Below are positions 4,722 through 64,000 of a DNA stretch of 64,000 nt, one piece after another. Every line of letters begins with the position of its first letter. Position 1 is the stretch's first letter. The position numbers were made by a program, and so were the translations under genes. Under the pieces are notes generated by a model. It was not told the DNA's origin and searched no databases. It saw only the letters and a list, made by a program, of their open reading frames with translations. The DNA is from Candidatus Krumholzibacteriota bacterium (GTDB taxonomy: Bacteria; Krumholzibacteriota; Krumholzibacteriia; LZORAL124-64-63): the NCBI GenBank assembly GCA_022711765.1, contig JAKLEB010000001.1:724694-788693 (forward strand). Reading direction: 5' to 3'.

Positions 4722-5674
4722 CGGCTCAGCGCCAGCATGCGATCCAGCGGCACGACCGCCCGCCGGCCGAGCGCGGGGTCGACCGTCAGCTCCGGACTGC
4801 GGTCGCGCATGCAGGCCAGCAGCTTGGCGATCGTGTTCTTGCGCATGTGCGGGCACAGGTTGCAGCTGCAGGTCTCGTCGGCTCCCGGCGCGGGGATGAG
4901 GGCCTTGTCGGGATTCTCCTTCTGCATCTGGTGCAAGATGCCCGCCTCGGTCACCACGATGATCTCGCGCGCCGGCGTCCGCCGCGCGAAGGCCAGGATG
5001 CTGCTGGTCGAACCCACGTGGTCGGCCTGGTCGAGGATGATCTCCGGACATTCGGGGTGAGCGGCCACGACCGCGTCCGGGTGCGCCTCGCGCAGCTCCT
5101 CCAGGCGGATCGCCGAGAAGACCTCGTGGACCTCGCAGCTGCCCGGCCACAGCACGAGCGGCCGGCCCGTCTCTTTCGCGACCCACCGGCCGAGGAAGCG
5201 ATCCGGCGCGAAGACCAGCGGCTGGTCCGGCGGAAAGCTCTCGACGACGCGGACCGCGTTGCTGCTCGTGCAGATGATGTCGCTGAGGGCCTTGGTCGCG
5301 GCCGAACAGTTGATGTAGCTGACGACCTTGTGGTCGGGATAGCCGGCGAGCCAGGCGGCGAACGCCTCGGCCGGGCAGCCGTCGGCGAGGCTGCAACCGG
5401 CCGTCAGGTCGGGGACCAGGACCAGCTTGTCCGGGTTGAGGATCTTGGCGGTCTCGGCCATGAAGTGAACGCCGGCGAACACGATCACCTCGGCATCGGT
5501 CGCCGCCGCCTGCTGGGCCAGGTAGAGGCTGTCGCCGACGTGGTCGGCGACGTCCTGGATCGCGGGTTCCTGGTAGAAATGCGCCAGGATGACGGCGTGG
5601 AGCTCCCGCCGCAACCGGTCGATCTCGGCGACGACCGCGGGGTCGGCGAAGGGACGGGCGGGCGTGGCGATCAT
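4706..5674 (-). CDS. nadA: quinolinate synthase NadA
   Basis: Internal Met of ORF 4706..5779 (MIATPARPF...). Conserved NadA blocks HFYQ, ILVPD, three Cys for the 4Fe-4S cluster, and the CSCNLCPHM-like C-terminus. The 3' end overlaps the convergent S1 gene by 16 nt. Confidence 0.85.
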
Positions 5675-5880
5675 GGCGCTGCTTTCGACGGGGTTGTGCG
5701 GTCCAATGTCGTCAAGGGCGCTGGCGCCGGCAAGGGAGAAGCCCTGAGGATCCAAGTGGACTTTCCCCATTCCAGTCATTACTTTTAGCCGTGGTTTACG
5801 GTTTCGGCCGCGACGCGGGACCCTCGCGCCGCGGTTTCGGCCATCCTCCGATGCGAATCCAGCCTGAGGAGTTGCCCACG

Positions 5881-6984
5881 ATGACTGGTGTCCGGGCTAC
5901 CATCCATCGTCCTGCGCTCGCCGGCCTTCTCGCCGTCGGGTCGCTGGGCCTGGCCCTGGCGGTCGGCTGCGGAGACGATGTGAGCGACGTGAGCTTCCCC
6001 GAGCAGCCGGATCCCCCGATCGGCGTCTGGTTCCTCGGCGTCTGGGGCACGGACCCCGACAACGTCTACGTGGTCGGCCAGCCCGGCCTGATCTACCACT
6101 GGAACGGCGACGAGTGGGCTCGCCAGACCAGCGGCACCGAGGTCGCCCTGACCGACGTCTGGGGCGACGGAGCGGGAACGGTCTACATCACCGGCCACCG
6201 CGGGACGGTCCTGCGCCGCAGCTCGGGCGGTGGCTGGTCCGCCATGAACACCGGCACGAGCGCCGACCTCTTCGCGGTCGGCGAGTACCAGGGCACCGTG
6301 ATGGTATGCGGGCGGGACGGGACCCTGCGGCAACTCAGCGGCGGCGGCTGGATCAACGCTCCGGAGGGAATCTACATCCGGGACAACGAGCAGGCCGTGA
6401 CGGACACGCTGGTCCGGAGCGAGGACGTCGAGTCGATCACATCGGTCGCCCACTACGGCGTGACCGCGTCCGAAGGCATCATCCTCATGGACGACCCGGA
6501 GACCGACTGGCTCCTGCGCCGGGTCACCGGCGGCGAGGACTGGGTCACCTGCTCGACCAGCAGCGATCGGCTCTCCGGGAACTTCGTGGCCACCGATGGC
6601 GGCCGGCTGTTCCAGCTGCGCCAAGACGAGAGCGACGCGCTGTCCTGGGAGGAATGGTACAGCCCGGCGCTCGGCGCCGTCGTCTACGGCATCTATACCG
6701 ACGACGCCGATACCGTGTGGGCCGTGACCAACGACGGCAGAATCAACCGGGTCGACCCCCCCGGTCACTCGTTCCGGCCGCTCTACGAGGACGGCCGGGT
6801 CCTCTTCGATATCTGGGGATCCAGCGGCACCAATCTCTACGCGGTCGGCATCGGTGGCCGCGTCCTGCACTTCCACGAGGTCGCCCCCGACGAGTTCGGC
6901 TGGGAGAGCGAAGAGCTGCCGCTGCCCGAGACCAAGAGCCAGACCGAACGGGTGTTCGACAGATTTGGCCGGACCGTTCCCTAG
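5881..6984 (+). CDS. lipoprotein with repetitive beta-propeller-like blades; function unknown
   Basis: Internal Met of ORF 5791..6984, GAGGAG 8 nt upstream. Signal peptide with lipobox LAVGC-G. At least six repeats of the type VY(V/I)(V/T)G...G.(V/I)..W.G..W. Confidence 0.6.
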
Positions 6985-9085: not shown

Positions 9086-9162
9086 TGGTAGGCCGCCCCG
9101 GAATCGAACCGGGCACCCCCTGCTTAAAAGGCAGGTGCTCTAACCTGATGAGCTAGCGGCCC
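9086..9162 (-). tRNA. tRNA-Lys (anticodon UUU)
   Basis: Reverse complement reads GGGCCGCTAGCTCATCAGGTTAGAGCACCTGCC-TTTTAAG-GCAGGGGGTGCCCGGTTCGATTCCGGGGCGGCCTACCA. Cloverleaf fits, with a GGTTCGATTCC T-arm, a 7-nt anticodon loop cTTTTaa, and an encoded CCA. Confidence 0.9.
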
Positions 9163-17405: not shown

Positions 17406-17490
<85 letters not shown>

Positions 17491-47388: not shown

Positions 47389-47418
47389 CCCCCCTGCTCC
47401 ATCACTGTGGCGTCGCCG

Positions 47419-47443
47419 GGCCCCGCGGTCGTACCGCGGGGCC
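47419..47443 (+). terminator. hairpin terminator after cheW
   Basis: ggccccgcgg-tcgta-ccgcggggcc, a 10 bp perfect inverted repeat followed by tttcgtcgt. It lies 30 nt after the cheW stop and 20 nt before the next start. Confidence 0.55.
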
Positions 47444-47463
47444 TTTCGTCGTATCATGGTGGC

Positions 47464-49410
47464 ATGCGCACGCTCCTCGCCGCCACGCTCCTGGCCGCCG
47501 CCGCGGCCCGCGTCGTCTGGCCCGCGCCGGCCGACAAGTTCAGCGCCGCCGAGCCCTGGCCCGGCCGGATCCCCGCCGCTGACGACCGCGGCTTCGACGT
47601 GCTGCAGTACGACCTCGAGGTGGACCTGGACATCGACGCCGGCGCGCCCGTGGAACGGCGGCTCTGGCTCGACGGCGTGATGCGCGTCATCCTGCGTCTG
47701 GCCGCCCCGCTGCCGCCCGAGGTGCGCCTCGACCTCGTGGACTCGCTCGGGGCGATCGAGGTCCGCTGGCAGGACGTCCCGACGCCGTTCGTCCAGGCCG
47801 GAGACAGCCTGCGCGTCGCGACCGGCCCCGGCGCCGCGGCCGGCGACACCGTCACCGTGACCGTGACCTACGGAGGGTACGTCCAGCGCCATGGGCCGAT
47901 GTCCGCCGGTCTCCTCACGCGAGCGCATGCCGGCGGGCGGCCAAGCGTGGGCAACGTGAACCAGCCGTATTCCAGCCACAGCTGGTTCCCGTGCAAGGAC
48001 CACCCGTCGGACAAGGCCGCGCTGCGCTTCGCGGTGACGGTCCCCGACACCCTCGCCGCGGTCGCGAGCGGCCGGCTCCTGGGGACCGAGGAACCGGCCC
48101 CGGGCCGCCGCACCTGGCGCTGGGCGACCGACCACCCGATCGCGCCGTACCTCGTCGGCCTCGCGGTGAGCGACTTCGCGGTCTGGGACGAAGACTGCGA
48201 CGGGGTGCCCCTGCAGTACCTCGTGTTTCCCGAACACCGCGCCGCCGCCGAGGCCGTGTTCGCCGAGACCTGCGCGATGATGCGCTGGCTCGGCGATCTC
48301 TGCGGTCCCTACCCGTTCGCCGACGAGAAATACGCGCAGGCCGAGTTCGTCTGGGGCGGCGCGATGGAGAACCAGACCGCGACCGTGATCGGTCAGACCG
48401 TGTTCGCGCAGCCGGTGCGCGACGCGCAGCTCACCGTGGTCCACGAGCTGTCGCACCACTGGTTCGGCGACAGCCTGACTCCGCGCCACTGGCGCGACAT
48501 CTGGCTCAACGAGGGTTTCGCGCGCTACGTCGAGCTGCTCTGGCTCGAGCACACCGAGGGCCCGCAGGCGTATCGCGAGCGCCTCCAGGGACTGAAGCCC
48601 GCCGACCTCTTCCAGGGCGACGGCCTGCTCGGCGATCCGGATCCCGTCCTGCAGCGGCTCGTCTACGACAAGGGAGCCTGGGTGCTGCACATGCTGCGGC
48701 TGTACCTCGGCGACCCGACGTTCTTCGCGTTCCTCCGCGAGTACGCCACCGATCCCGACCTGGCGTACGCGCACACCGATCGAGCCGCGCTCACCGCCGC
48801 GCTCGGCCGCGCCGCGGGCCGCGACCTGGCGCCGTTCCTCGCACCCTGGCTCGACACGGAGGCGCTGCCCGCGATCGGCGCGCGCTGGCGCGCCGGCGGC
48901 GGCTCGCGCACCCTGGTGGAGGTCGTCCAGAGCCAGGGCGAGCCGTTCTTCCCGCTCGTGGTGCCCGTGCGCGTGCACGCCGGCCTCGAGACCCGGGACC
49001 TGCTGCTGCGCATGGACGACCTGCTCGCCAGCGCGGAGGTCACGACCACGATGCCGGTCGACAGTGTCGTCGTCGATCCGGACGACCTCCTGCTGCGCGT
49101 GACCGCGGCCACGCCGCAGCCGCGGTTGCTCGCGGCCCAGGTCCGGCCCAATCCGGCCTCCGGCGCGACCGTCCTGGCGTACTGGCTCGCGGGCGCCGAC
49201 CGGGTCGCGGCCGCCGTGTACGATGTGCGCGGACGGCTCGTCAGGCGCATGGACCTCGGCGCGCAGCCGGCGACCGGCGACGGCGAGCCGCGCCTCTGGG
49301 TCTGGGATGGCCGCGACGAGGCCGGCCGGCGCGCCGCGGCCGGCGTCTACTGGCTGGAGCTCCGCACCCGCGACGACCGCGCGGCGCGCAAGGTCACGCT
49401 GCTGCGCTAG
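47464..49410 (+). CDS. M1-family aminopeptidase with signal peptide and C-terminal FlgD-Ig/T9SS-like sorting domain
   Basis: Internal Met of ORF 47407..49410. GAMEN motif (GGAMENQ), HELSHHWFGD...E zinc site. C-terminal ~80 aa (VRPNPASGATVLAYW...VYDVRGRLV...AGVYWLELRT...KVTLLR) shared with two other proteins in the window. Confidence 0.8.
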   Translation: MRTLLAATLLAAAAARVVWPAPADKFSAAEPWPGRIPAADDRGFDVLQYDLEVDLDIDAGAPVERRLWLDGVMRVILRLAAPLPPEVRLDLVDSLGAIEVRWQDVPTPFVQAGDSLRVATGPGAAAGDTVTVTVTYGGYVQRHGPMSAGLLTRAHAGGRPSVGNVNQPYSSHSWFPCKDHPSDKAALRFAVTVPDTLAAVASGRLLGTEEPAPGRRTWRWATDHPIAPYLVGLAVSDFAVWDEDCDGVPLQYLVFPEHRAAAEAVFAETCAMMRWLGDLCGPYPFADEKYAQAEFVWGGAMENQTATVIGQTVFAQPVRDAQLTVVHELSHHWFGDSLTPRHWRDIWLNEGFARYVELLWLEHTEGPQAYRERLQGLKPADLFQGDGLLGDPDPVLQRLVYDKGAWVLHMLRLYLGDPTFFAFLREYATDPDLAYAHTDRAALTAALGRAAGRDLAPFLAPWLDTEALPAIGARWRAGGGSRTLVEVVQSQGEPFFPLVVPVRVHAGLETRDLLLRMDDLLASAEVTTTMPVDSVVVDPDDLLLRVTAATPQPRLLAAQVRPNPASGATVLAYWLAGADRVAAAVYDVRGRLVRRMDLGAQPATGDGEPRLWVWDGRDEAGRRAAAGVYWLELRTRDDRAARKVTLLR

Positions 49411-51749
49411 CGCACGAGGGTGATCTTGAGGATCGCCTGGCCGCCCGGTCCGGCCGCGCGGACCCAGTACACGCCGCTCGCGCAGTCGCGCCCGCGATCG
49501 TCGCGACCGTTCCAGACCTCGCGGTATCGCCCGCCGGGCCGGAAGCCGTCGGCCAGCGCGCGGACCTGCCGCCCCGCGGCGTCGTGGATGGCGAGGCGGA
49601 CCGTTCCCGCGGCGGGGACCGTGAAGTAGATCGAGGCATGCGGGTTGAAGGGGTTGGGGACGCAGGGTCCCAGACGCAGCGCGGTCGCGTCAGGGACGTC
49701 GGTGGTCGAGCCGGCGATCGCGAAGACCGCGCTCTGATCCCAGCCGAGATTGCCGGCCGCGTCGCGGGCCAGCGCCCGCAGGCAAGCGCTGGCGCAGGCG
49801 AGGTCGGGCACCGTCCACGCCGCGCTGCCGTTCGCGGCGAGGCCGGTCAACGCCGTCGGCGCCCAGTGCTCGCCGCCGTCGCAGCTCAGCTCGAGGTCGA
49901 CCGCGACGACGGCGACGTTGTCGGCCGATTGCCAGGCGACCGTCACGACGGCGCCGGGTTCGAGCACCGCGCCCGCCGGCGGGCCCGCGCTCCACAGGAC
50001 TCCGGGCCCGTAGCGATCGCGCAGCGCGAAGACGCCGCTCTGGGCGACGCCGGCGTTGCCCTCGGGGTCGCGCGCCGTGACCCGCACCCGCAACGCCTCG
50101 CCCGGCACCGCGCCGAGGCTGCCGGTCCAGGTCCCCGCGTTCGCGAGGTTCCGCGCCAGGACCACCGGGTAGGTCGCGCCGCCGTCGCGGCTGAGGTGGA
50201 GGTCGACGGCGACGACGCCGCTCGCGTCCGTGGCCGTCCAGCGCACCGCCTGCGGATCGCCGAGAGTCCCGGCCTCGCCCGCGGCAGGCTGCAGGACGGA
50301 GACCGCGGGCGGCGTCTGGTCGAGGTCCACGACGCCGATCGCGACGGTGATGGTCGCCGGGTCGCGGGGCGCCAGGACATCGCGCACGTCGACGTCGGTG
50401 CGGGCGCCTCCGTTGGTCCGCGACGCCGGCAGCGTCGTCGCGGCGAAGCGCACCGCGCCGCTCGAGCCGGGCCAGGGATCGCCCGCGTCGCCGCGGTTCG
50501 CGCCGACCTGGTCCAGGCCGTCGGCCTGCTCCAAGGCGATCCCGGCGATCGGGCCCGCGTTGACCTCGTTCAGCGCCCGCGCGGCCGCGATCACCGACCC
50601 GTCGACGTGCCAGATCAGGAGGCCCGCTGCGGGGAGCGACGCGTCGAAACCGGTCCGCCGCCGGTTCTCGACCAGGAAGAGCTCCCCCGCAGCCATGTCC
50701 GGATCCCGGACCACGAGCACGTGGCCGGCCGGCAGGGTGACCGGGCCGTCCTCGCGCACGTCCACGACCGGCCCCCAGCCGAGGTCTCGCCGGCTCCAGG
50801 CGCACGGCAGCGACGGCGACGACGGCGTCCGCCCGTCGCCCCCCCAGCTGCCGGTCCCCATGAGCCCCCAGCCGCCGATGCCGGCGCCGCCGCCCACCGT
50901 GTCATAGAGGTCGGGCAGGCCCAGGACGTGGCCGTACTCGTGGCAGATCACGCCGATCTCGATCGCGCCGCCCGCGCAGCTCAGCTCGGGCACCAGGACG
51001 TAGTCGTCGACCTTGATGAAGCCGCCGCCCGCCCGCGCGGTCGCCGTGACGTAGGCGCCGTAGCCCCAGCCGGCGAGGAAGAAGCAATGGCTCCAGAGCT
51101 CGCTCGAACCGCATTCGCCGCCCTTGCCGGCGTGCATCACGACGACGCAGTCGACGTAGCCGTCGTCGTCGCCGCTGTTCGGCGCGCCGTCGGGACCGTC
51201 GTCGTCGTAGCGGCCCCAGTCGAAGCCCTGGACGTCGGCCGCCGCCACGACGTCGTACACGAAGCGGCCGGCGTTGTCGGGCGCGGCCCACACGTCCATG
51301 CCGTTGTGGTCGCCTGCGTAGTCGCCGACCGCGCGCGGTGCGCGCTTCCAGTCGATCACCTCGCCCACGACCTCGAGGGCGCCCCCGCTCGCCGCGAGGT
51401 AGTAGTCGCGGACGGAGTTCGTCCCGGTGAACCGCGCCTGCAGGGTCGCCTTCGGGATCGTGACCGCGCGGTCGCTGAATCCGCCCGGGATCACGAGGAG
51501 GCGCCTCGTGTCGGTCGCGCCCTTGTCACCGCCGGCGCCGACCGCCAGCCGCGACGGGAAGCCTGGGCGCGGGCCGGTCCAGCGCTCGAGCGCGGACGGC
51601 AGCGTCGCGCCCGAACCGGGGCGCGGCGGCGCGATGGCGAGGCCAGGCTGTGCGCCCGCCGCGGCGAGCGCCATCAGCGCCGCGCTGCAGAATGCGCGTG
51701 CACGGGCCGCTCGCTTGCGGTGGCCGCCTCGCACAACCGATTGCGACAT
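49407..51749 (-). CDS. M6-family (immune inhibitor A-like) metalloprotease with Ig-like repeats and C-terminal FlgD-Ig/T9SS-like sorting domain
   Basis: 780 aa. Signal peptide. HEYGHVLGLPDLYD, the M6 HExxHxxGxxD signature. Repeated beta-sandwich segments. C-terminus CVPNPFNPHASIYFTV...VRLAIHDAAGRQV...GVYWVRAAG...KITLVR. Confidence 0.75.
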   Translation of the reverse strand: MSQSVVRGGHRKRAARARAFCSAALMALAAAGAQPGLAIAPPRPGSGATLPSALERWTGPRPGFPSRLAVGAGGDKGATDTRRLLVIPGGFSDRAVTIPKATLQARFTGTNSVRDYYLAASGGALEVVGEVIDWKRAPRAVGDYAGDHNGMDVWAAPDNAGRFVYDVVAAADVQGFDWGRYDDDGPDGAPNSGDDDGYVDCVVVMHAGKGGECGSSELWSHCFFLAGWGYGAYVTATARAGGGFIKVDDYVLVPELSCAGGAIEIGVICHEYGHVLGLPDLYDTVGGGAGIGGWGLMGTGSWGGDGRTPSSPSLPCAWSRRDLGWGPVVDVREDGPVTLPAGHVLVVRDPDMAAGELFLVENRRRTGFDASLPAAGLLIWHVDGSVIAAARALNEVNAGPIAGIALEQADGLDQVGANRGDAGDPWPGSSGAVRFAATTLPASRTNGGARTDVDVRDVLAPRDPATITVAIGVVDLDQTPPAVSVLQPAAGEAGTLGDPQAVRWTATDASGVVAVDLHLSRDGGATYPVVLARNLANAGTWTGSLGAVPGEALRVRVTARDPEGNAGVAQSGVFALRDRYGPGVLWSAGPPAGAVLEPGAVVTVAWQSADNVAVVAVDLELSCDGGEHWAPTALTGLAANGSAAWTVPDLACASACLRALARDAAGNLGWDQSAVFAIAGSTTDVPDATALRLGPCVPNPFNPHASIYFTVPAAGTVRLAIHDAAGRQVRALADGFRPGGRYREVWNGRDDRGRDCASGVYWVRAAGPGGQAILKITLVR

Positions 51750-54165: not shown

Positions 54166-54594
54166 TCAGCGCAGGAGCACCGCCTTCGTGGTGCGGATCG
54201 CGGACTCCGTGGTCAGGCGCACGAGGTACGCGCCCGACGGGAGGGCGCGGCCGGCGTCGTCCGTGCCGCGCCAGCTGAGGATGTGGCGGCCGGCGGGGCG
54301 GGGGGTGTCGAGGAGCGTGACCAGGCGGCGGCCGCGGAGGTCGTGGATGGTGACGGTGGCGTGGGTCGGGCACGGGAGATCGAAGGAGATCGTCGTTGCC
54401 GGGTTGAAGGGGTTGGGGGTGGCGGGGTGGAGGATGATGGCTGCGGCCGCCACGCCAACGGGTTCCTCCGGCCCCTCTGGGTGATCAACCGGCAGAATGT
54501 CGTGGCAATCGACCGGGAGAAGGTGACGGACCGCAGGCGAGGTAGACCTCTCCATCGAACTCGCGGATACGGATCTCCGAGTAGTCCGGCACAT
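54166..54594 (-). pseudogene. orphan FlgD-Ig/T9SS-like C-terminal sorting domain without signal peptide or passenger domain; probable gene remnant
   Basis: 142-aa ORF whose last ~85 aa match the sorting domains of the M1 and M6 proteases (ATPNPFNPATTISFDLP...VTIHDLRGRRLV...GAYLVRLTT...KAVLLR). The N-terminal 55 aa are Arg/Ser-rich with no signal peptide. Upstream DNA is the AT-rich promoter of the HNH gene. Confidence 0.35.
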
Positions 54595-54713
54595 CGCAAC
54601 GACGACCAGCGTGTGCCTTTCCGCAGCATGGGATTCTCCCTCCGGAACTCGCCCACGACCCCACGATGATACGTCGATCTCAGCAACATTGTCGATCGTC
54701 CGCTCTTACCCCA

Positions 54714-54777: not shown

Positions 54778-55908
54778 ATGTCCTTCGTACCAGACGACTT
54801 CCGCCCCGGTCTGTCCGCCACCGAGGTCGACCGCGCCCTGCGCGGCGCCGTGTCGGCCTACGACCGCGCCCGCCGCAACGTCGCCCTCTGGTTCACCGAC
54901 GCCCTCGAGCGCGGCCTCTACCGCGACCTGGGCCACGCCAGCATGGAGATCTACGCCCGCGAGGGTCTCGGCTTCTCCCCCGGCCGCACGCGACAGTTCC
55001 TCGCCCTCGCCCGCGACCTGCGCCGGCTGCCGCACCTGCGCGCCGCGGTCACGGACGGGCGCCTCGGCTGGACCAAGGCGCAGGAGGTGGCGCGGGTGGT
55101 GGCGCCGGCGAGCGAAGCGGCGTGGGTCGAGCGCGCCGTCGCGTTGCCGCGGGACGAGCTGCGGCGCGAGGTGGCGACCGCGCGGGCGCGGGCGCGCGGT
55201 GCGCGGCTCGCGGCGCGGGGCAAGGCCGCGGGCCAGCTGGAGTCGTCGACCACCCGTGCGACGTCGACCCGCGGCGACGGATCGTCGCGCGCGGCGGCCC
55301 CCGCAGCCGCGCCGGCGACCATCCCGCCGACCACGATCGCGATCCAGCTCGACGCCCTCGAGCTCGCCCGCTTCGACGCCCTCGTCACGGCCGCGAGGAG
55401 ATCCGGCGCCGTCGCCGCCGACGCGACGCGCGCCGAGATCGTGCTCTCCGGACTCGCCGCCCTTACGAAAACTCCGCAGCGCGTACGCCGCGGACGTGGC
55501 GTCGGCCGCACGCACGGCAGCGCAAGCTGTCAGTATAACGGCGCGCGCCACCTTGCCCCGGCCGCCACGGTGATCGTGCAGCGATGTCCGGAGTGCGACG
55601 CCGCCTTCGCGCTCACGACCGCGGGACCCAAGCGGCTCGACCGCGCCGCGGACGCCGCGCTCGCCTGCGACCACGTCGCGCGGGACGCGCGCGGGCACAA
55701 CCGCAGCGCGGTCCCGCCGGCCGTCCGGCGGCAGGTGCTCGATCGCGACGGGCATCGCTGCACGACAGCGGGTTGCGATAACACGCGCTTCCTAGAGGTC
55801 CATCACGTCGTGCCCAGAGCGCAGGGAGGGACCAACACGACGGATAACCTGACGACGTTGTGCGCGCGGTGCCACCGGTTCGCGCACGAGCGGGCCCCCG
55901 CCCCCTAG
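54778..55908 (+). CDS. HNH endonuclease with N-terminal DUF222-like domain (actinobacterial 13E12-repeat type)
   Basis: 376 aa. C-terminal HNH motif C..C...H..HH.....GG.N..DNL..LC..CH, preceded by an Ala/Arg-rich helical domain. Stop overlaps the convergent Omp85-fusion gene by 4 nt. Confidence 0.75.
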   Translation: MSFVPDDFRPGLSATEVDRALRGAVSAYDRARRNVALWFTDALERGLYRDLGHASMEIYAREGLGFSPGRTRQFLALARDLRRLPHLRAAVTDGRLGWTKAQEVARVVAPASEAAWVERAVALPRDELRREVATARARARGARLAARGKAAGQLESSTTRATSTRGDGSSRAAAPAAAPATIPPTTIAIQLDALELARFDALVTAARRSGAVAADATRAEIVLSGLAALTKTPQRVRRGRGVGRTHGSASCQYNGARHLAPAATVIVQRCPECDAAFALTTAGPKRLDRAADAALACDHVARDARGHNRSAVPPAVRRQVLDRDGHRCTTAGCDNTRFLEVHHVVPRAQGGTNTTDNLTTLCARCHRFAHERAPAP

Positions 55909-58900
55909 AAATCCGGTCCGATCGAGAAGTGGAACACGCTGCCGTCGACGTGGCGCAGGTCGGTCCGCCAGGCCCAGTCGAACTTGAGCGGCAGCCAGAA
56001 CACGTTGGCGCGCAGGCCGAAGCCGAAGTCGCCGCGGAGGTCGCCGAACGCCCCGTCGTCGAAGAACTGGACCTCGTCGGTCCAGGCGCAGCCGGCGTCG
56101 AAGAAGACGGCGCCGCCGATGCCCGTGAGGCCCCACTGGCCGGGCCAGCCGAAGATCAGGTAGTCGACGAAGGGCAGGCGGTACTCGAGGCTCGCGAGGG
56201 CCATCTTGGTGCCGGCGAGGTTGTCGAGGGTCTGGTAGTCGTAGTAGCGGTAGCCGCGGAGGGTCCAGGGGCCGCCGATCACGAAGCCGCGCGGATCCTC
56301 GCCCGCCGAGTGGGCGTAGGTGAGGCGCAGGGCGAGGCTGTTGCGCCGCAGCGGCAGCCAGTATTTGCGGAGGTCGCCGACGAAGTTGAAGCGGTCGAGG
56401 CTGCTGTCGGAGAGCGGCAGGCCCTTGGCGACGCTCAGCGACCAGCGGCTGCCGGCCACGGGGCCGTGCAGGCCGTACAGCGCGTTGTCGTGGACGAAGC
56501 TGAGCGCCGGTTGCAGGAGGCGGCTCCGCCGCTTGGCGACCGGCACCAGGAAGCCGAACTCGTCGAAATCGTAGTCGGTGCGGTCGCTGTTGAGGATCTC
56601 CACATCGAAATCGACGCGCTCGAAGACCGACAGCGGGTAGCTCGCGCGGCCGAAAAATCCGTAGTTGCGCTCCTTGAAGAGGGTCTCGTCGGTCAACAGC
56701 TCGCCCACGCTGGTGATGACCGAGTTGTAGTAGTTGTTGTACAGGAACGCGCCGGCCGACAGGTCGACGCGGCGCTTGAGGAAGGTGTAGGCTGCGGCGA
56801 GGTCGCTGTTGTCGACGGCGCCGTAGAAATTCACCAGGAAGTCGAGGCGGCGGTCGCCGAGGTCGTCGGTCAGCGTGATGACGTTGGCGAAGCCGAGGCC
56901 GCCCGCGCTCGTCCAGTACACGGCGCCGCCGGCCCCGGCGCGGGTCGCGTCGAGGCGGAAGCGGGGGCGGTAGCGTTCGACGAGGCCGATGCGGTCGGGG
57001 TCGATCCGCACGGTGTCGGGGGGACCGGCGCGCGTGACGAGCTGCGGCGGTTCGATCACGACCGGGCCCGGCGCCGTGCCGCCCGGCGTCCGCGCCGACC
57101 AGCTGCCGCGGAACTGGTCGGCGGCGTAGAGATCGTAGCCTGCGTTATGGAACGCGCTGAAGACGAGGCGGTCGCCGGCGACCGCGTAGGTGAGATGCTG
57201 CAAGCCGCCGAGGAGGTTCGTCAGCGGGCGGTCGCTGGCCACGGCCGAGCCTGTCGAATCGAGCGCCACGAGCGACAGGTTGTCGATGCCGTTCGCGCCG
57301 TCGACCACGACGAGCGCGCGATCGTCGATCCACACGGGGTCGCGGCGGCGGTCGCGGGACGCGAAGAGGCGGCTCCGCGCGCCGTCAAGCGCGAGGACCT
57401 CGACCGCCGGCGGCGGCGCCGTCCGGGTCGTGTCGAGGGCCGCCTCGCCCACGAGGCGCGCCTGGCGCAGGCGCTTGGCGCCGTCCGCCAGCAGCTCGAT
57501 CTCGAAGGCGACCTCGGCCAGCGGATTGAACGAGAAGGCGAGCCGCGAGCCGTCCGGCGACCAGGCCGGCGAACTCTCGTCGCCGGCGTCGTCCGTCAGG
57601 CGCACGAGGCGCGCGCCGTCCGGCAGTCGGCGCGGCGGCGCGGCGGCGGCGACCCCGAGGCTGTCGAGCGCGCCGGGGACCATCTCCACGAGGTAGAGAT
57701 CGGTGCGGCCGCGGTCGGTGCCCACGAGGGCGACCAGGCGGCCGTCGGGCGACCAGGCCGGATCGGCGGCGACGTCGAGCTCGAGATCCCAGCTGCGGGT
57801 CACGTCGCCGTTCGCCGCGTCGATCGTGTGCAGCGTCTCCCGGTTGCCGCTCTTCGCGACCAGGACGACCTCGCGGCCGTCCGGCGACCAGCCCAGGCCC
57901 GAGCGGAAACTGTGGAAGCTCTCGAAGCGGCTCGCGCGCATGCTGCGGCCGAGGCGACGGATCACCTGGCCGTCGATGGCCGACAGGAGATAGAGGTCGA
58001 TCAGACCGTCGCGGTCGGTGAAGCAGGCGACCAGGTCGCCGTCGGGATTCAGGGCGGGCCGACCGTAGAACGACGCCTCGTCCGTCTCGACGCCGGTCAG
58101 CGGCCGCGAGATGTCCTCCATCTGCTCGAGGTCGCTGAAGCCCGGCCAGTAGCGCTGGCGGAGGGACCGGTGGTAGAGCTCCTCGAATTCCTCCATCGTC
58201 AGACCGTAGGTGAGCGCGAGCGCGCGGTCGACGCTGCGCACGCGGCCGACGGTGCGCCAGAACTCGTTGAGGCGCTCGGCGCCGTAGCGATCGGAGAGCA
58301 GGCGCATCGCCGCCTGGCCCTGCTTGTAGACCAGGTAGCCGCCGACCCGCTCGAGCGGCTGCAGGTAGTCGTTGATCGTGGCGTCGCGGATGACCATGTC
58401 GGCGTTCGCGTCCCAGCCCGAGCTGAGCCACTCGGCCACGCCCTCGGCGAACCACAGGGGGATATTGAAGAAGGCGTTGCGGCCGAGGTCGACGCTGCGG
58501 GAGCCGAAGGCCATGTCGAACATGAAGACGTGGACCAGCTCGTGGCGGATCACGTGCACGAGGTCGGCGTGCGAGCCGTTGTACGGCAGGACCATGCGGT
58601 TGCGGAACGGCTCGGAGAAGCCGCCGGTGCCCTCGCCGATGAGGTAGTCGGAGATGTTGGTCTGCGCGAATTCGGCGTGGCTCGAGTAGAGGATCAGCGG
58701 CGTGCGCAGCGGCAGATCGCGGTCGAGGCGATCGGCGTACTCCTTGTAGGCGCGCTCGGCGATGATCGCCGCGCGGAACGCGAGCTCCTCGGCGCCGTCG
58801 TGGAAGTGCAGGTCGAAGTGCGGAGTCGTGAGCACGCGCCAGTCGTGGTCGCCGGTCTGGACCTTGTTCTTGCCGTACCGCTGCGCCTGCGCCGGTACGG

Positions 58901-58979
58901 CGCAGGCGATCGCGCACAGCACGACCACGAGCGCTCTAGTACTCGAAACGATACTTGAGATCGAGATTGTACGTCGCAT
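55905..58979 (-). CDS. Omp85-superfamily outer-membrane beta-barrel protein whose periplasmic region is an HExxH zinc-peptidase-like domain plus a PD40/TolB-type beta-propeller instead of POTRA domains
   Basis: 1024 aa. Signal peptide. HELVHVFMFD...WFAEGVAEW around residue 150. At least three WSPDG PD40 repeats between residues 330 and 480. C-terminal ~380 aa with the Omp85 L6 RGY motif (GGPWTLRGYRYYD) and terminal aromatic signature ...FHFSIGPDF. The 5' end overlaps the tamB-like gene by 44 nt. Confidence 0.7.
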   Translation of the reverse strand: MRRTISISSIVSSTRALVVVLCAIACAVPAQAQRYGKNKVQTGDHDWRVLTTPHFDLHFHDGAEELAFRAAIIAERAYKEYADRLDRDLPLRTPLILYSSHAEFAQTNISDYLIGEGTGGFSEPFRNRMVLPYNGSHADLVHVIRHELVHVFMFDMAFGSRSVDLGRNAFFNIPLWFAEGVAEWLSSGWDANADMVIRDATINDYLQPLERVGGYLVYKQGQAAMRLLSDRYGAERLNEFWRTVGRVRSVDRALALTYGLTMEEFEELYHRSLRQRYWPGFSDLEQMEDISRPLTGVETDEASFYGRPALNPDGDLVACFTDRDGLIDLYLLSAIDGQVIRRLGRSMRASRFESFHSFRSGLGWSPDGREVVLVAKSGNRETLHTIDAANGDVTRSWDLELDVAADPAWSPDGRLVALVGTDRGRTDLYLVEMVPGALDSLGVAAAAPPRRLPDGARLVRLTDDAGDESSPAWSPDGSRLAFSFNPLAEVAFEIELLADGAKRLRQARLVGEAALDTTRTAPPPAVEVLALDGARSRLFASRDRRRDPVWIDDRALVVVDGANGIDNLSLVALDSTGSAVASDRPLTNLLGGLQHLTYAVAGDRLVFSAFHNAGYDLYAADQFRGSWSARTPGGTAPGPVVIEPPQLVTRAGPPDTVRIDPDRIGLVERYRPRFRLDATRAGAGGAVYWTSAGGLGFANVITLTDDLGDRRLDFLVNFYGAVDNSDLAAAYTFLKRRVDLSAGAFLYNNYYNSVITSVGELLTDETLFKERNYGFFGRASYPLSVFERVDFDVEILNSDRTDYDFDEFGFLVPVAKRRSRLLQPALSFVHDNALYGLHGPVAGSRWSLSVAKGLPLSDSSLDRFNFVGDLRKYWLPLRRNSLALRLTYAHSAGEDPRGFVIGGPWTLRGYRYYDYQTLDNLAGTKMALASLEYRLPFVDYLIFGWPGQWGLTGIGGAVFFDAGCAWTDEVQFFDDGAFGDLRGDFGFGLRANVFWLPLKFDWAWRTDLRHVDGSVFHFSIGPDF

Positions 58980-61900
58980 CGCCCTGGTACTCGTCGATCC
59001 GGCGGCGGATCTCCGTCTGCAGCAGCAGGTGGTTGGTGATCTGGTACTCGATCAGCAGGTCCCGGTCGTTCTGGTTCACGCCCTGCGCGTACGTGATGTA
59101 GAGGTCGGTGCCGACATACTTGCCAACGCCGATCAACGGGTCGAGGCCGGTCTCGCCGCTCGTCTGCTGGCGCTGGATCTGCTCGATCTCGACCGTGTCG
59201 AAGATACCGATCTCCGAGGCGATCTCGCGCTCGAGGATGTTCAAGCCGGCCGAGATCGACGCGTTCGCGAGGACGTCGCTGTCGCCCTGCGCGTCCGGAT
59301 AGGGCGAGAGGCCGAGCAGCATGCGCTCGATCGCCGCGCGCGGATAGCCGCTCTCGCTCGAATAGCTGATCTCCATGGCATCGGCCGGGCCGGTCGCGTG
59401 GACGGTGATCAGCTCGACCACGCTCGCGCCCTGGACCTGGCTCGGCAGGCGCACGCGGGTCTCGGCGTCGATGTCGACGTTGGGCACCACGCCGACCGCC
59501 CGGCTGAAATCGAGGCGGCCGCGCACGACCTTGAAGGTGTTGTTGAACACCGGCAGGCGGCCGTTGTCGATGTCCATGCCGCCCTTGATGATCATCCCGT
59601 CGGCGTCGCGCACGACGGTGACGTCGCCGGAGAGGTCGAGATCCATCGTGCGGTTGACGATGCGGGCGGTGCGCGGCGGACCGCTGACCCGCACGTCCGC
59701 GAGCCAGTTCGGCGCGACCGTGCCGAGGGTCGGATCGAGGGTGCCCTCGGTGGCGGCGAAGTTGCCCGTGTAGCGCCCGCGGATCAACTCGAAGTCGCCG
59801 GTGAAATGAGGCACCAGGGTGCTGTCCGGACCGACGGGCACGCCGGTGAGGCGGCCGTTGTCCGTCCGGACCAGGGCCCGCAGGTCGGGGATCGAGGCCA
59901 CCAGGAATCGATCGGCGGCGAACGCGATGTCCCAGGTCTTCAGCACGAGTCCCGCGAAGGTCACGGAGCCGGAGCCCGTGAAGACGCCGCGCTGGCCTTC
60001 CTGGCCGCGCAGCTCCTGGACGATCAGCAGATCGTCCTGGAAGACCCCGCGCGCGCGGCAGTCATGGTAGACCTCCTCGTTGCCGCGCAGGACGAACGCG
60101 ACGTCATCGACGGCGATCGTGCCCTGGTAGACGGGGTGCGAGAGCGGGCCGGACACGATCAGGTCGGCCTGGCCGCGGCCGGAGCAACGGCTGAACGCGT
60201 TGGTCGCGTCCAGAAGCGGCGCCAGGTCGGTTCCGGCGGGCACGACGAGGTGGCCGAAGAACGGGCCGTCCGGGGGCGTCGTCGGCGCCGCCAGCAGGTC
60301 AAAGCTCAGCGGCAGCTCGAGGCGGCCCTCCAGGCGGAGTTCGTCCTGGTTGCCGCGCAGATCGCCGAACGCGAGCTGCCCGTCCTCGGCGCGGACGGTG
60401 CCGGTGAGCCGATCCAGGTGCAGCCACTGGAAGTGGAAGGGCGCGCTGTCGAGATCGCCGGTCACCAGCGGGTCCTCGCTCGTCCCGGCCAGGTGCAGGT
60501 CGCCGCGGAACCGGCCCGCGAGCCGGTCGAGCGCCGGCAGCTGGAATTGCTCGAGGAACGCCCAGTCGCCGTCCGGGATCTCGATGTCGAGGTCCAGCGA
60601 CGCGCCCGGCCAGAACTCGCGGAGGCTGGCGCCCCGGTGGCTCACCGTGCCGGCCAGACGGACCCTGCCGAACTCGCTGGCCACGTCGACCGCATCGATC
60701 GTCACCGTGCCGCGGCGGAGGTGCGCGGCCACCCTGAGCGAATCGACGCGGGCGAGCGGGAACCTCGCGTCCACGAGGTCGCCGCGCAGGGTGACCGTGG
60801 GCGAATCGGGCCGCCCGCCGACCTCCACGAGAGCGGTCGCGCGGCCGCCCGTCTGCACCGACCGGCGCAGCAGCGGGTCCAGCAGGTCGAGATCGAAGTT
60901 CGTCGCCTCCAGGCGACCGTTGAGCAGATCGTCGGCGGCGCGGTAGTCGACGGACGCGGTGAAATCGCCGTGGTCGGAGACGAGGCGCAAACGCGGGACC
61001 TGCACGAGGCCGTCGCCGACGGCGGCCGCCACGGCGGCGTCGGTGCGCCATTCGTTGCCGGCGAAGTCGATCGCGAGCCCGGCGACATTCAGATCGGCCC
61101 GCCCCGGCGACAGGTCGGCGCGGCCGCGGCAGGCGACGACCGTATCGCCGTGGACCGTGCGCAGGGAGTCGACCTCGACGCTGGTCGGGCCGACCCGGGT
61201 CCACAGGAGGTAGCGGCCGAGCGGCACGCCGCCGAGCGCGAAGCCGTCGCCCTCGGTCGCGGCGCTCAGGGACCAGTCCTCGCCCAGGACCCGCTCGGCG
61301 AGCACGTCCGCGGTGCCGGTCGTCGCGGTCAACGTGCCCACGGCGAGGTCGGCGAACTCGAGGGTGCCGGCGGCCTCGAGCGCATCGAGCGGCCCGTCGA
61401 GCGCGACCTGCCCGGCGAGCCGGCCGCCGAGCGCCGGCCAGCCCCAGCCGGGCGGGACGCTGCGCAGGTCGGCGCAGGCGACGTCGAGCCAGCCGGCGAA
61501 GACCTCGTCGCGATCGCTGGTGCCGGCCAGTCGCGCCCGCAGCGCGCCGTGGCTCAGGTCGACGGAGCGGAAATGGAGCGAGTCCCCCCGGGCCCAGACA
61601 TCGACCCGGCACGTATCGAAGGGCATGATCTCGATCTCGCCGTCGACGATCAGCCCGCTCACCCGCGTCGCCTCGTCGGCGGTCGTGTGCACGATCTCGA
61701 GCCGGCCGTGGCCCGCGGTCCGCGGCAGGTCCGCGACCTCCGGGATCAGGCCGGCGCGCAGGTCGAGATCGCGCGCATCGCCGGCGATCGTGATGACCGT
61801 GCCGGCTGGGTCGCGGGCGTCGACGCGCAGCGTCCCGTCGAACCAGGCGCCGCCGACCCCGCCGCGCAGCACCGCGAACTCGGCCACCCCGCCCGAGACC

Positions 61901-62799
61901 ACCGCCTCGCCCCGGACGGCGTCGAGGTTCCACTGCTCGAAGCGCCCGGAGAAATCGCCGGCGAAGCGCACGGTATCGTCGTGGGCCGTGACCGTGCAAT
62001 CGACGTCGCCGGCCGCGTCGAAGTCGAGGGACAGCCCGACGAGATCGTTCACGGCCGCGACCGAAACGCCGCGCGCGGCCACGGCCACCGCCACGCCGGC
62101 CTCGGTGACGCCGCCGTCGACGGTCACGCGGCCGTCGTTCCACAGCGCGCTGAGGTCCCTCGCCCGCACGCCGTCTTTCGCGATGGTGAGCTCGCCGTAG
62201 AGCCGGTCCAACGTCGACCTGCGGGTGTCCCAGCGCACCGAGCCGCCCCGCGAGACCAGCCGGAGGCGCTCGCCGTCGCCACGGATCCCGCCGCGCCACC
62301 CGACGTCCTGCAGGAGCTCGCGCTGCCGGCCGTCGGCGTCGGCGATCTCGATCCGCGCGTTGCGGACATCGACGAGATCCACCTCGATCCGCGGGATCGC
62401 CCGCGGCTCGTCGTCCGCGGCCGCCGCCGGCTCGGTCGCCGGCGGCTGGTTGTGATAGACCTCCACCCCGCGCATCGCCAGCCGACGCAGCCGCAGCCGG
62501 GGTCCCAGGACCTCCCGCAGGCGGAAGTCGATCTCGAGCGTGTCCACCGCGACGAGCGTCAGGCCGCCCCGTTCGCCGCGGACGGTCAGGGTGGCGTCGT
62601 AGGCGTCCAGGCCGCCGAACGCGCGCACGTGGTAGGCGCCGACCCGCAGATGGCCGTTCAGGCGCGCTTCGAGCTGCCGGTTCACGAGGCGGGTCGCGAA
62701 CGGCGCCAGGACCTGCGGATTGCGGTCGAGCAGGACCACTCCCCCCGCCAGCAGCAGGAGGGTGAGGATGGCCGGCCAGCGGATGCGTCGTCGCGCCAT
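58936..62799 (-). CDS. tamB: TamB-like translocation and assembly module protein (AsmA/DUF490 family)
   Basis: Internal Met of ORF 58936..63669 (MARRRIRWPAILTLLLLAGGVVLLD signal-anchor). 1288 aa of repetitive beta-rich sequence. C-terminal DUF490-like region (...GKYVGTDLYITYAQG...DLKYRFEY). Located 2 nt downstream of an Omp85 gene. Confidence 0.8.
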   Translation of the reverse strand: MARRRIRWPAILTLLLLAGGVVLLDRNPQVLAPFATRLVNRQLEARLNGHLRVGAYHVRAFGGLDAYDATLTVRGERGGLTLVAVDTLEIDFRLREVLGPRLRLRRLAMRGVEVYHNQPPATEPAAAADDEPRAIPRIEVDLVDVRNARIEIADADGRQRELLQDVGWRGGIRGDGERLRLVSRGGSVRWDTRRSTLDRLYGELTIAKDGVRARDLSALWNDGRVTVDGGVTEAGVAVAVAARGVSVAAVNDLVGLSLDFDAAGDVDCTVTAHDDTVRFAGDFSGRFEQWNLDAVRGEAVVSGGVAEFAVLRGGVGGAWFDGTLRVDARDPAGTVITIAGDARDLDLRAGLIPEVADLPRTAGHGRLEIVHTTADEATRVSGLIVDGEIEIMPFDTCRVDVWARGDSLHFRSVDLSHGALRARLAGTSDRDEVFAGWLDVACADLRSVPPGWGWPALGGRLAGQVALDGPLDALEAAGTLEFADLAVGTLTATTGTADVLAERVLGEDWSLSAATEGDGFALGGVPLGRYLLWTRVGPTSVEVDSLRTVHGDTVVACRGRADLSPGRADLNVAGLAIDFAGNEWRTDAAVAAAVGDGLVQVPRLRLVSDHGDFTASVDYRAADDLLNGRLEATNFDLDLLDPLLRRSVQTGGRATALVEVGGRPDSPTVTLRGDLVDARFPLARVDSLRVAAHLRRGTVTIDAVDVASEFGRVRLAGTVSHRGASLREFWPGASLDLDIEIPDGDWAFLEQFQLPALDRLAGRFRGDLHLAGTSEDPLVTGDLDSAPFHFQWLHLDRLTGTVRAEDGQLAFGDLRGNQDELRLEGRLELPLSFDLLAAPTTPPDGPFFGHLVVPAGTDLAPLLDATNAFSRCSGRGQADLIVSGPLSHPVYQGTIAVDDVAFVLRGNEEVYHDCRARGVFQDDLLIVQELRGQEGQRGVFTGSGSVTFAGLVLKTWDIAFAADRFLVASIPDLRALVRTDNGRLTGVPVGPDSTLVPHFTGDFELIRGRYTGNFAATEGTLDPTLGTVAPNWLADVRVSGPPRTARIVNRTMDLDLSGDVTVVRDADGMIIKGGMDIDNGRLPVFNNTFKVVRGRLDFSRAVGVVPNVDIDAETRVRLPSQVQGASVVELITVHATGPADAMEISYSSESGYPRAAIERMLLGLSPYPDAQGDSDVLANASISAGLNILEREIASEIGIFDTVEIEQIQRQQTSGETGLDPLIGVGKYVGTDLYITYAQGVNQNDRDLLIEYQITNHLLLQTEIRRRIDEYQGDATYNLDLKYRFEY

Positions 62800-62801
62800 G
62801 A

Positions 62802-64000
62802 TCAGAACACGTGCCCCAGCGAGAAGTGGAGCCGCCAGCGGTCGTCGACCAGGGTCTTCTCGAGGCTCTGGTACCGGGCCCGCTTCAGGGGGAAACCGAG
62901 GTCGAGCCGGAACGGCCCGAACGGCGTGTCCAGCCGCAGGCCGGTCCCGACACTGTAACGATAATCCCAGATCTTGGTGCTCGTCGGATCTTCCGGGTCG
63001 CCCGGGTACGAACGCAAGCGAAAGGCGTCGAGCGTGATGTCGTCGAGGTCCTCCCAGACGTTGCCGCCGTCGCAGAACAGGACGCTGCTGAGGTGCCAGC
63101 GTGAGAGCCAGGGCAGCGGGAAGCGCCACTCGGCGTTCGTGATGAGCTGGTAGTTGCCGCCGCGGGCCGGATCGTCGGGCAGCGGGACGTCGCTCCCCCA
63201 GCCGATCTCCGCCTGCTCCTCGGGGTCGGTGATCTGCGGACCGAGGCTGTTCTCGCGATAGCCGCGGACGCTGTAGGCCCCGCCCGCGAAGAAGCGGTCG
63301 TCGTACGGGACGCCGTCGCTGCCGAGCTCGCGCGAATCGCCGTAGGGACGGACCGCGCCGAGGCGCACGCGGGCCGCGACGACGCCGCCCAGCAACGGCC
63401 GGTAGTCCTGCAGGGAGCCGCTCCACTTCAGGAAGCTGTTGTCGCCGCCGAGCAGCCCGCCGGCCAGTTCGAGCTGGCTCGTGAAGTACTGTCCGCGGAC
63501 CGGGTTGAAGGCGTCGTCGCGTCCCTCGCGGAACAGCGAGTGGATGACCGAGCGCGTCGTGCTGGCCGTGACGCCGGCCGCCTCGAAATCCTCCTGCAGA
63601 TCGGACGGCGCCAGCGGATGGACCGCGGGATCGACCGTGCGCAGGCTGAGGTCCAGACGGTTGGTCCACAGCAGGTCGTCGCGGCGCTGGGTGCCGACCA
63701 GGATGCCGTAGATCGTCTGGATCAGGCCCGATTCGCCGCGCGTCGCGCGCTTGGCGTAGACGTTCACGTCCAGCGGGTAGTCGCGGCCGAACAGGTGCGG
63801 ATTGTCGTAGAGGACGTCCGCGCGGTAGTTGAGGTCGCCCTCGGCGAAGATGCGCGGCTCGCCGATGATCTCCTCGACGTTCCAGTAGCCACGCAGCCGC
63901 AGCTGCAGGCGCCGGCCGCTCCCCCAGAGGTTGTTGTGGCCCCAGGCCACCATCGCGCGGATCCGCTCGCGGCTGCCGAAGCCCGCGCCGAACTCGTAGA
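62802..64000 (-). CDS. Omp85-family outer-membrane protein (TamA/BamA-like); C-terminal ~390 aa of barrel, N-terminus beyond the window end
   Basis: Barrel motifs RFFAGGAYSVRGYREN (L6 VRGY motif) and C-terminal ...RLHFSLGHVF. No stop in frame up to 64000, so the gene continues upstream. Confidence 0.8.
   Translation of the reverse strand, partial: YEFGAGFGSRERIRAMVAWGHNNLWGSGRRLQLRLRGYWNVEEIIGEPRIFAEGDLNYRADVLYDNPHLFGRDYPLDVNVYAKRATRGESGLIQTIYGILVGTQRRDDLLWTNRLDLSLRTVDPAVHPLAPSDLQEDFEAAGVTASTTRSVIHSLFREGRDDAFNPVRGQYFTSQLELAGGLLGGDNSFLKWSGSLQDYRPLLGGVVAARVRLGAVRPYGDSRELGSDGVPYDDRFFAGGAYSVRGYRENSLGPQITDPEEQAEIGWGSDVPLPDDPARGGNYQLITNAEWRFPLPWLSRWHLSSVLFCDGGNVWEDLDDITLDAFRLRSYPGDPEDPTSTKIWDYRYSVGTGLRLDTPFGPFRLDLGFPLKRARYQSLEKTLVDDRWRLHFSLGHVF

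Follow-up and report, generated by a model that had tools for sequence, protein, structure and literature searches.

Proteins of the Omp85/TpsB superfamily have been divided into ten subfamilies, one of which, 'WD40-like' or 'WD40-Omp85', carries its barrel after PD40 repeats that resemble TolB (Heinz & Lithgow 2014, PMC4104836). That study read the arrangement as reminiscent of a BamA-BamB fusion, listed BamA/TamA, TolB and aminopeptidase-like matches for its members (Table S3) and gathered about 62 sequences, whose cultured sources include Rhodothermus, Caldithrix, myxobacteria and Chloroherpeton (PMC4104836). A 2024 summary likewise mentions Omp85s carrying 'divergent WD40 and peptidase domains' (PMC11358297). 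The subject of the present analysis is a gene of this kind, encoding a peptidase-propeller-Omp85 protein of 1024 residues at 55905..58979 on the minus strand of a 64,000-nucleotide stretch (the window) from a Candidatus Krumholzibacteriota bacterium (contig JAKLEB010000001.1, positions 724,694 to 788,693). The protein belongs to the WD40-like Omp85 subfamily: it has PF07676 repeats with TolB as their best match and an aminopeptidase-like region at its N-terminus, and is assigned by the published description and its Tables S2 and S3. The first-pass annotation of the window did not place the architecture in a characterized family, a suggestion of novelty that the 2014 description overturns (PMC4104836). 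What is added here, the invariance of the active site and the operon, is incremental; the main text of the 2014 paper covers the propeller only, and neither observation is described there or in Heinz 2015. The 2014 members came from cultured organisms, whereas the present gene belongs to an uncultured Krumholzibacteriota-like lineage.

Experimental precedents come from other systems. PlpD, of type Vd, resembles the present protein in having an enzyme domain N-terminal to an Omp85 barrel; it differs in that PlpD has a patatin lipase and one POTRA and forms dimers, whereas here a metallopeptidase domain and a propeller are found, and no POTRA. The PlpD enzyme domain was formerly thought to be secreted and stays periplasmic (PMC11116518), and PlpD is the best experimental precedent for a periplasmic enzyme domain on an Omp85 barrel. 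The periplasmic HExxH peptidase BepA acts on the β-barrel assembly machinery (BAM), docking on it and triaging stalled outer-membrane proteins (OMPs) (PMC8423444, PMC13478230). The proposed likeness lies in an HExxH zinc peptidase joined to a protein-interaction scaffold at the periplasmic face of the OMP assembly machinery. However, BepA is a soluble M48 peptidase with tetratricopeptide repeats, whereas the present protein combines an M1/M9/M30-like gluzincin with a propeller and a barrel anchor, and no homology is claimed.

Domain Architecture

The protein consists of a signal peptide, a gluzincin zinc-peptidase domain, a six-bladed TolB-like propeller, a linker and a BamA-type 16-strand barrel. 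The three modules that the first-pass annotation had named (peptidase-like, propeller, Omp85 barrel) are thus all real and stand in the order it gave. A full-length AlphaFold2 model built on a 53-sequence alignment has a pLDDT of 85.2 and a pTM of 0.84, and a profile of the full protein matched TolB and BamA, and no peptidase, among PDB sequences. The Pfam matches that had been expected were found in part: Omp85 and PD40 score above their cut-offs, and Peptidase_MA_2 falls under its gathering score. The features are as follows, with residues numbered from M1 at 58979-58977.

55905..58979, minus strand: peptidase-propeller-Omp85 coding sequence, 1024 amino acids plus the stop codon at 55905-55907 (from translation and the identical Joint Genome Institute (JGI) protein P0001)
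58884..58979, minus strand: Sec-type signal peptide, residues 1-32 (MRRTISISSIVSSTRALVVVLCAIACAVPAQA, followed by Q), recognized by eye from a positive n-region, a hydrophobic core and an AxA site
58107..58844, minus strand: gluzincin (clan MA(E)) zinc-metallopeptidase domain, residues ~46-291, from predicted fold and motifs
58530..58544, minus strand: HExxH motif, H146-E147-x-x-H150
58428..58454, minus strand: W176-FAEGVAE-W184, with the third zinc ligand E179
58326..58328, minus strand: Y218 in VYKQGQ, aligned to the tyrosine of the M1 'VYxKG' motif
57117..58070, minus strand: six-bladed TolB/PD40-type β-propeller, residues ~304-621, 24 strands
56925..57116, minus strand: Pro/Gly-rich linker, residues 622-685 (64 residues), in the position of the POTRA domains of BamA/TamA
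55908..56924, minus strand: 16-strand Omp85 β-barrel, residues 686-1024
56250..56261, minus strand: loop 6, L907-R908-G909-Y910, between β11 and β12
56091..56105, minus strand: F959-F-D961-A-G963 on β13

The gene is real and no chance product of a ~70% GC genome, because an identical JGI protein exists, homologues number in the thousands, and the Pfam Omp85 and PD40 matches lie in the minus-strand frame. The identical protein (P0001) is encoded on ~2 Mb JGI metagenome contigs. The first-pass annotation had the correct open reading frame (ORF), which runs for 1024 codons from ATG to stop, and left its strand unstated. A plus-strand ORF at 55860..58958 was rejected as a shadow ORF, its translation having the low-complexity Ala/Arg/Glu/Gly-rich composition typical of such GC-rich DNA. 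Every motif quoted earlier is present in the minus-strand translation: HELVH at 146-150, WFAEGVAEW at 176-184, WSPDG at 364, 409 and 473, GGPWTLRGYRY (LRGY at 907-910) and FHFSIGPDF ending at 1024.

The choice of start codon is uncertain. Initiation at ATG 58979 gives a 44-nt overlap with the tamB stop and a canonical signal peptide (MRRT...AQA followed by Q), whereas the alternative GTG at 58928, which is the JGI call, gives 1007 amino acids and begins 7 nt past the tamB stop. Residues 1-33 have low pLDDT in the model, and the homologue consensus retains AxAQ at the end of the signal peptide. No convincing lipobox was found by direct reading of the signal peptide.

Peptidase Domain and its Conservation

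The peptidase domain has the features of a gluzincin, that is HExxH with a downstream glutamate as third ligand on a fold predicted to be thermolysin-like. It shares this catalytic fold with M1 peptidases (aminopeptidase N, ERAP1, LTA4H, tricorn factor F3), M9 collagenases and M30 (lugdulysin), as well as HExxH, the third-ligand glutamate within W(L/F)xEGxA and the downstream tyrosine. It is not a member of family M1: there is no Pfam match to PF01433 anywhere in the protein, the GxMEN exopeptidase motif is unrecognized in the domain (the aligned region reads FAQTN...GGFSEP), and the domain has only ~245 residues. M1 peptidases carry extra N- and C-terminal domains, whereas only the catalytic domain is found here.

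Conservation was assessed in 81 sequences, comprising the window and 80 species-level genome loci at ~30-78% identity. These loci come from metagenome-assembled genomes (MAGs) labelled Krumholzibacteriota, Eisenbacteria, Zixibacteria, Latescibacteria and Ignavibacteria, many being labelled only 'bacterium' or Fibrobacteraceae. H146, E147, H150, E179 and Y218 are invariant in all 81, with variable positions flanking them, and the same five residues are invariant in 53 of 53 protein-database homologues. E179 is the putative third zinc ligand, which the first-pass annotation had still to locate. Barrel residues are nearly as constant: R908 is kept in 80 of 81 sequences, G909 in 79 of 81, D961 in all 78 without a gap at that position and the terminal Phe in 76 of 77. 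As judged from sequence, this pattern argues that both the zinc peptidase and the Omp85 barrel that bears it are functional, and disfavours a purely structural HExxH relic. Such strict conservation suggests that the protein is probably an enzyme and no mere BamB-like scaffold.

The family is large. Among 8000 candidates scored, >3000 are homologues at E≤1e-5, and the peptidase domain alone matches the representatives of 3268 clusters (50% identity) at E≤1e-3, of which 615 reach E≤1e-30. Since most of the top matches to the domain are 920-1125 residues long and carry it at the N-terminus, the three-module architecture is its norm. Databases give family members generic names, and a homologue search from a Zixibacteria/Ignavibacteria-type member returned MAG proteins only.

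Propeller, Linker and Barrel

The propeller scores 39.5 bits against Pfam PD40 (PF07676; cut-off 20.9) and has TolB as its closest structural match. Four PD40 signatures can be read directly (LNPDG at 310 and the three WSPDG motifs), and two further blades are degenerate. TolB itself has an N-terminal TolA-binding domain and is encoded in a tol-pal operon, whereas the present propeller has neither and is fused into a larger protein.

BamA, TamA, TamL and TpsB carry POTRA domains N-terminal to the barrel, whereas the present protein does not, as the first-pass annotation had supposed. No Pfam POTRA match was obtained in the protein even at E≤10, and the linker, which in the AlphaFold2 model has just two strands of 3-4 residues at pLDDT 60-77, contains no POTRA fold.

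The barrel matches Pfam Omp85 (PF01103) at 50.4 bits (cut-off 24), or 51.7 bits for the C-terminal segment alone. The C-terminal region models as 16 strands with the RGY motif in loop 6, as anticipated, and ends in the β-signal FHFSIGPDF. With PF01103 above threshold, 16 strands, and both the loop-6 motif and the (F/Y)xDxG motif on β13, the barrel belongs to the Omp85 superfamily. It falls short of three curated subfamily models, scoring 35.7 bits for NCBIfam BamA (cut-off 297), 17.8 for TamA (cut-off 625) and likewise far under the cut-off for TamL. A recent duplication of the neighbouring bamA barrel was considered and rejected, the two barrels being only ~24% identical over 91 residues by BLASTP (E 0.05).

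Genomic Context

In the source contig the gene order is uppS-cdsA-dxr-rseP(M50)-[POTRA-Omp85, 700 aa]-tamB (1287 aa)-peptidase-propeller-Omp85-(HNH, opposite strand)-...-uvrD/pcrA, so that two Omp85 genes flank tamB, one on each side. The two upstream neighbours in the window are:

58936..62799, minus strand: tamB, 1287 aa, adjoining the peptidase-propeller-Omp85 gene upstream (Pfam TamB E 2e-33, JGI call, translation)
62802..64000, minus strand: 3' part of a BamA-like, POTRA-bearing Omp85 gene (full product 700 aa, ending ...LHFSLGHVF), adjoining tamB upstream and cut by the window end

The Pfam match upholds the earlier identification of the neighbour as tamB. TamB begins with an N-terminal signal anchor (MARRRIRWPAILTLLLLAGG). 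A longer tamB ORF of 1577 codons (58936..63669) was rejected as an over-extended, high-GC artefact that reaches ~870 nt into the bamA-like gene; the JGI call and the signal anchor place the start at 62799. The 700-aa Omp85, complete at 4025-6127 of the source-contig locus (L081), has POTRA and Omp85 domains, and its top NCBIfam match is BamA TIGR03303 at 240.8 bits over profile positions 149-731.

The order dxr-rseP-bamA-tamB-peptidase-propeller-Omp85-uvrD recurs in about 50 of the 80 loci, down to ~32% identity (tblastn). Of the 70 loci with sufficient upstream DNA, 56 have tamB as the immediate upstream neighbour on the same strand, with an estimated gap of -44 to +227 nt (median 23). The gene is the last member of an rseP-bamA-tamB operon in a branch of FCB-type (Fibrobacteres-Chlorobi-Bacteroidetes) phyla, namely Krumholzibacteriota, Eisenbacteria and related MAGs. 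The first-pass annotation had raised the question of whether the linkage to tamB always holds; it is lineage-wide in these 56 of 70 informative loci, but is absent in Zixibacteria/Ignavibacteria-type loci. There murA lies directly upstream in place of tamB, with unrelated housekeeping genes around (L063 8600..13012, L039, L050, L053, L058); murA is identified by TIGR01072 in L063 (566 bits) and L039 (534 bits) and by a Pfam EPSP_synthase match only in L050, L053 and L058. Two Eisenbacteria MAG loci (L036 7322..15221, L046 6826..15459) have the order dxr-rseP-peptidase-propeller-Omp85-uvrD, with neither bamA nor tamB in between; in these the POTRA-less protein sits in the slot of bamA in the classical rseP-bamA cluster. 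The tamB, murA and rseP neighbours of family members are all envelope-biogenesis genes. The bamA-tamB-linked context is apparently new: the searched literature, including the TAM (translocation and assembly module) evolution paper of Heinz 2015, yielded nothing on a bamA-tamB-WD40-Omp85 operon.

A scan for promoters and terminators found nothing beyond shuffle expectation inside the operon, and no GC-content island was detected.

Proposed Function

For a protein with the domains, invariant catalytic and barrel motifs, POTRA-less barrel and conserved operon observed here, we give about an even chance to the reading that it is a barrel-anchored, periplasm-facing zinc peptidase, serving envelope biogenesis or quality control alongside BamA-TamB with a logic like that of BepA. 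The BamA-type barrel would be the outer-membrane anchor, and the ~64-residue Pro-rich tether would hold the propeller and a catalytically competent gluzincin in the periplasm. An unfolded or partner polypeptide would be captured by the propeller and then cut at the HExxH/E/Y site. Because the gene is proposed to be co-transcribed with rseP-bamA-tamB, the substrates may be envelope proteins in transit, either stalled or mis-assembled OMPs or TamB-associated cargo, and the protein may contact BamA or TamB. The net role would be that of a membrane-tethered processing or quality-control protease, analogous to BAM-docked BepA in logic and not in ancestry. The suggestion of the first-pass annotation that the soluble domains may bind or process substrates, and not chaperone them, is a reasonable one.

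Several points weigh against this reading. The peptidase domain scores below the Pfam threshold for every curated family, Peptidase_MA_2 having E 5e-5 and 27.5 bits against a gathering threshold of 32.4. A domain-only profile gave marginal matches to M9 collagenases among PDB sequences (E 0.018), and hhalign against the canonical M1 peptidase encoded in the window aligned the motifs with a probability of 3.7%. These weak alignments do superpose HExxH, the EGxAE glutamate and the VYK(Q/E)G tyrosine on the M9 and M1 catalytic motifs; the assignment as an enzyme rests on the predicted fold, from a fold search, and on motif invariance, the sequence similarity to solved peptidases being marginal. 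The periplasmic location of peptidase and propeller is proposed by analogy, since parts N-terminal to Omp85 barrels, including the PlpD enzyme domain, are periplasmic. As bamA-tamB synteny is missing in the Zixibacteria/Ignavibacteria-type loci, the family as a whole need not have a dedicated BAM/TAM role, and operon membership identifies no substrates. Finally, the searched literature yielded no study, whether functional, structural or genetic, of the WD40-like Omp85 subfamily, and no experiment on any of its members.

The proposed protease role and its alternatives are not fully exclusive, a TamB-docked protease being one example. A less probable reading, which we consider unlikely, is that TamB docks on the POTRA-less barrel as its outer-membrane partner, the barrel being functionally equivalent to TamA or TamL in these phyla, with the peptidase and propeller as accessories to a lipid/OMP transport bridge. 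The β-signal-like C-terminal strands of TamB would then augment the lateral seam of the barrel. The tight and often overlapping position of tamB directly upstream in the 56 loci agrees with this, as does the retention of the Omp85 functional motifs in the barrel. TamB of the window ends, at 58936..58980 on the minus strand, in ...YNLDLKYRFEY, which resembles an OMP β-signal, and the alternating strand pattern (Y/F)N(L/V)(D/N)LKxRxE(Y/F) with its terminal Y/F is kept in 60 of 60 tamB-bearing loci, in agreement with the report that TamB's C-terminal region mimics OMP β-strands (Heinz 2015). In published AlphaFold models the C-terminal strands of TamB lie against the BamA or TamL barrel at its first and last strands, with no need of POTRA (PMC13382580; bioRxiv 10.1101/2024.10.17.618404). 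Judged by its sequence, the TamB C-terminus fits β-augmentation on an Omp85 barrel seam, without telling which of the two flanking Omp85s would be used. Against the docking role, the BamA-like, POTRA-bearing Omp85 immediately upstream is the conventional partner, bamA-tamB being the ancestral pairing (Heinz 2015), and with such a protein at hand the peptidase-propeller-Omp85 need not be the partner of TamB. Moreover, the DUF490 region of TamB binds POTRA domains biochemically, and the present protein lacks them; in many members of the family, too, tamB is not an adjacent gene.

A combined version, somewhat more doubtful still, is that BamA, TamB and the peptidase-propeller-Omp85 make up one three-part envelope machine in Krumholzibacteriota, Eisenbacteria and their relatives, in which TamB would dock by its β-signal-like C-terminus on the POTRA-less barrel as on the TamA equivalent of these phyla while the gluzincin and propeller would trim or cleave cargo, TamB or BamA.

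It is improbable that the protein is purely a scaffold, with the propeller as a built-in BamB/TolB-like docking platform and the HExxH domain as a non-catalytic binding module. TolB propellers are protein-binding modules, as in the Tol-Pal system, and the sub-threshold Pfam score of the peptidase domain would suit such a role. Heinz & Lithgow proposed a docking platform and drew the comparison with a BamA-BamB fusion (PMC4104836). However, for a module that only binds, it is unexpected that both His ligands, the catalytic and third-ligand Glu residues and the presumed transition-state Tyr should be invariant in 81 sequences.

Least credible is a type V-like display, per the original type Vd model of PlpD, in which the barrel would export its own peptidase and propeller to the cell surface as an extracellular protease: the N-terminal enzyme and C-terminal Omp85 barrel are laid out as in type Vd proteins, and the neighbourhood encodes several secreted peptidases with type IX secretion system (T9SS) tails, which points to an investment in extracellular proteolysis, but the PlpD enzyme domain is periplasmic and passing a folded domain of ~30 kDa through an Omp85 barrel was judged energetically unfavourable (PMC11116518), the passenger here is ~65 kDa and includes a closed propeller, POTRA is absent, unlike in type Vb/Vd proteins (PMC11116518), and the gene lies in a housekeeping envelope-biogenesis operon with no secretion or nutrient-acquisition genes.

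Other Features of the Window

Convergent with the peptidase-propeller-Omp85 gene and overlapping its stop by 4 nt is a gene for an HNH endonuclease of 376 aa (54778..55908, plus strand), whose HNH motif is confined to residues ~312-373. The protein has weak IscB-like, McrA-like and group II maturase-like matches (NCBIfam guided_IscB 54 bits, cut-off 175), and an Rfam gathering scan found no HEARO or omega-RNA near the gene. Because only one of the 80 related loci (L004) has an HNH gene beside the Omp85 gene, with a weaker match ~5 kb off in L015, it seems to be an insertion, specific to the lineage, between uvrD and the Omp85 gene. A terminator-like hairpin at 55473..55494 (minus strand) lies ~410 nt past the Omp85 stop, within the antisense HNH gene; the count of such hairpins is not above shuffle expectation.

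Further along is a cluster of genes for secreted proteins with T9SS-type C-terminal sorting or FlgD_ig domains (47407..49410, plus strand; 49407..51749, minus strand; 54166..54594, minus strand). Two of its members encode peptidases, one canonical M1 and the other M6 (immune inhibitor A-like), and the third is a small ORF of 129-142 aa; the T9SS-type sorting domains indicate that the organism uses type IX secretion. A sigma-70-like promoter at 54666..54695 (minus strand), upstream of the small T9SS-tail ORF and outside the Omp85 operon, is above shuffle expectation. The only Rfam gathering-level matches in the window are two tRNA genes (9089..9162 and 17409..17490, both minus strand).

Biological Significance

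WD40-like Omp85 is one of the few Omp85 subfamilies without an assigned function. If the protease role proposed above were wrong, the protein would be one more member of a catalogued architecture. If instead it is a barrel-anchored quality-control or processing protease linked to BAM/TAM, it would be a second, independent solution to the job that BepA does in E. coli, and would bear on how TamB engages its outer-membrane partners outside Proteobacteria. The three-part machine, if true, would make proteolysis a built-in part of a transport bridge between the membranes, for which no counterpart is described.

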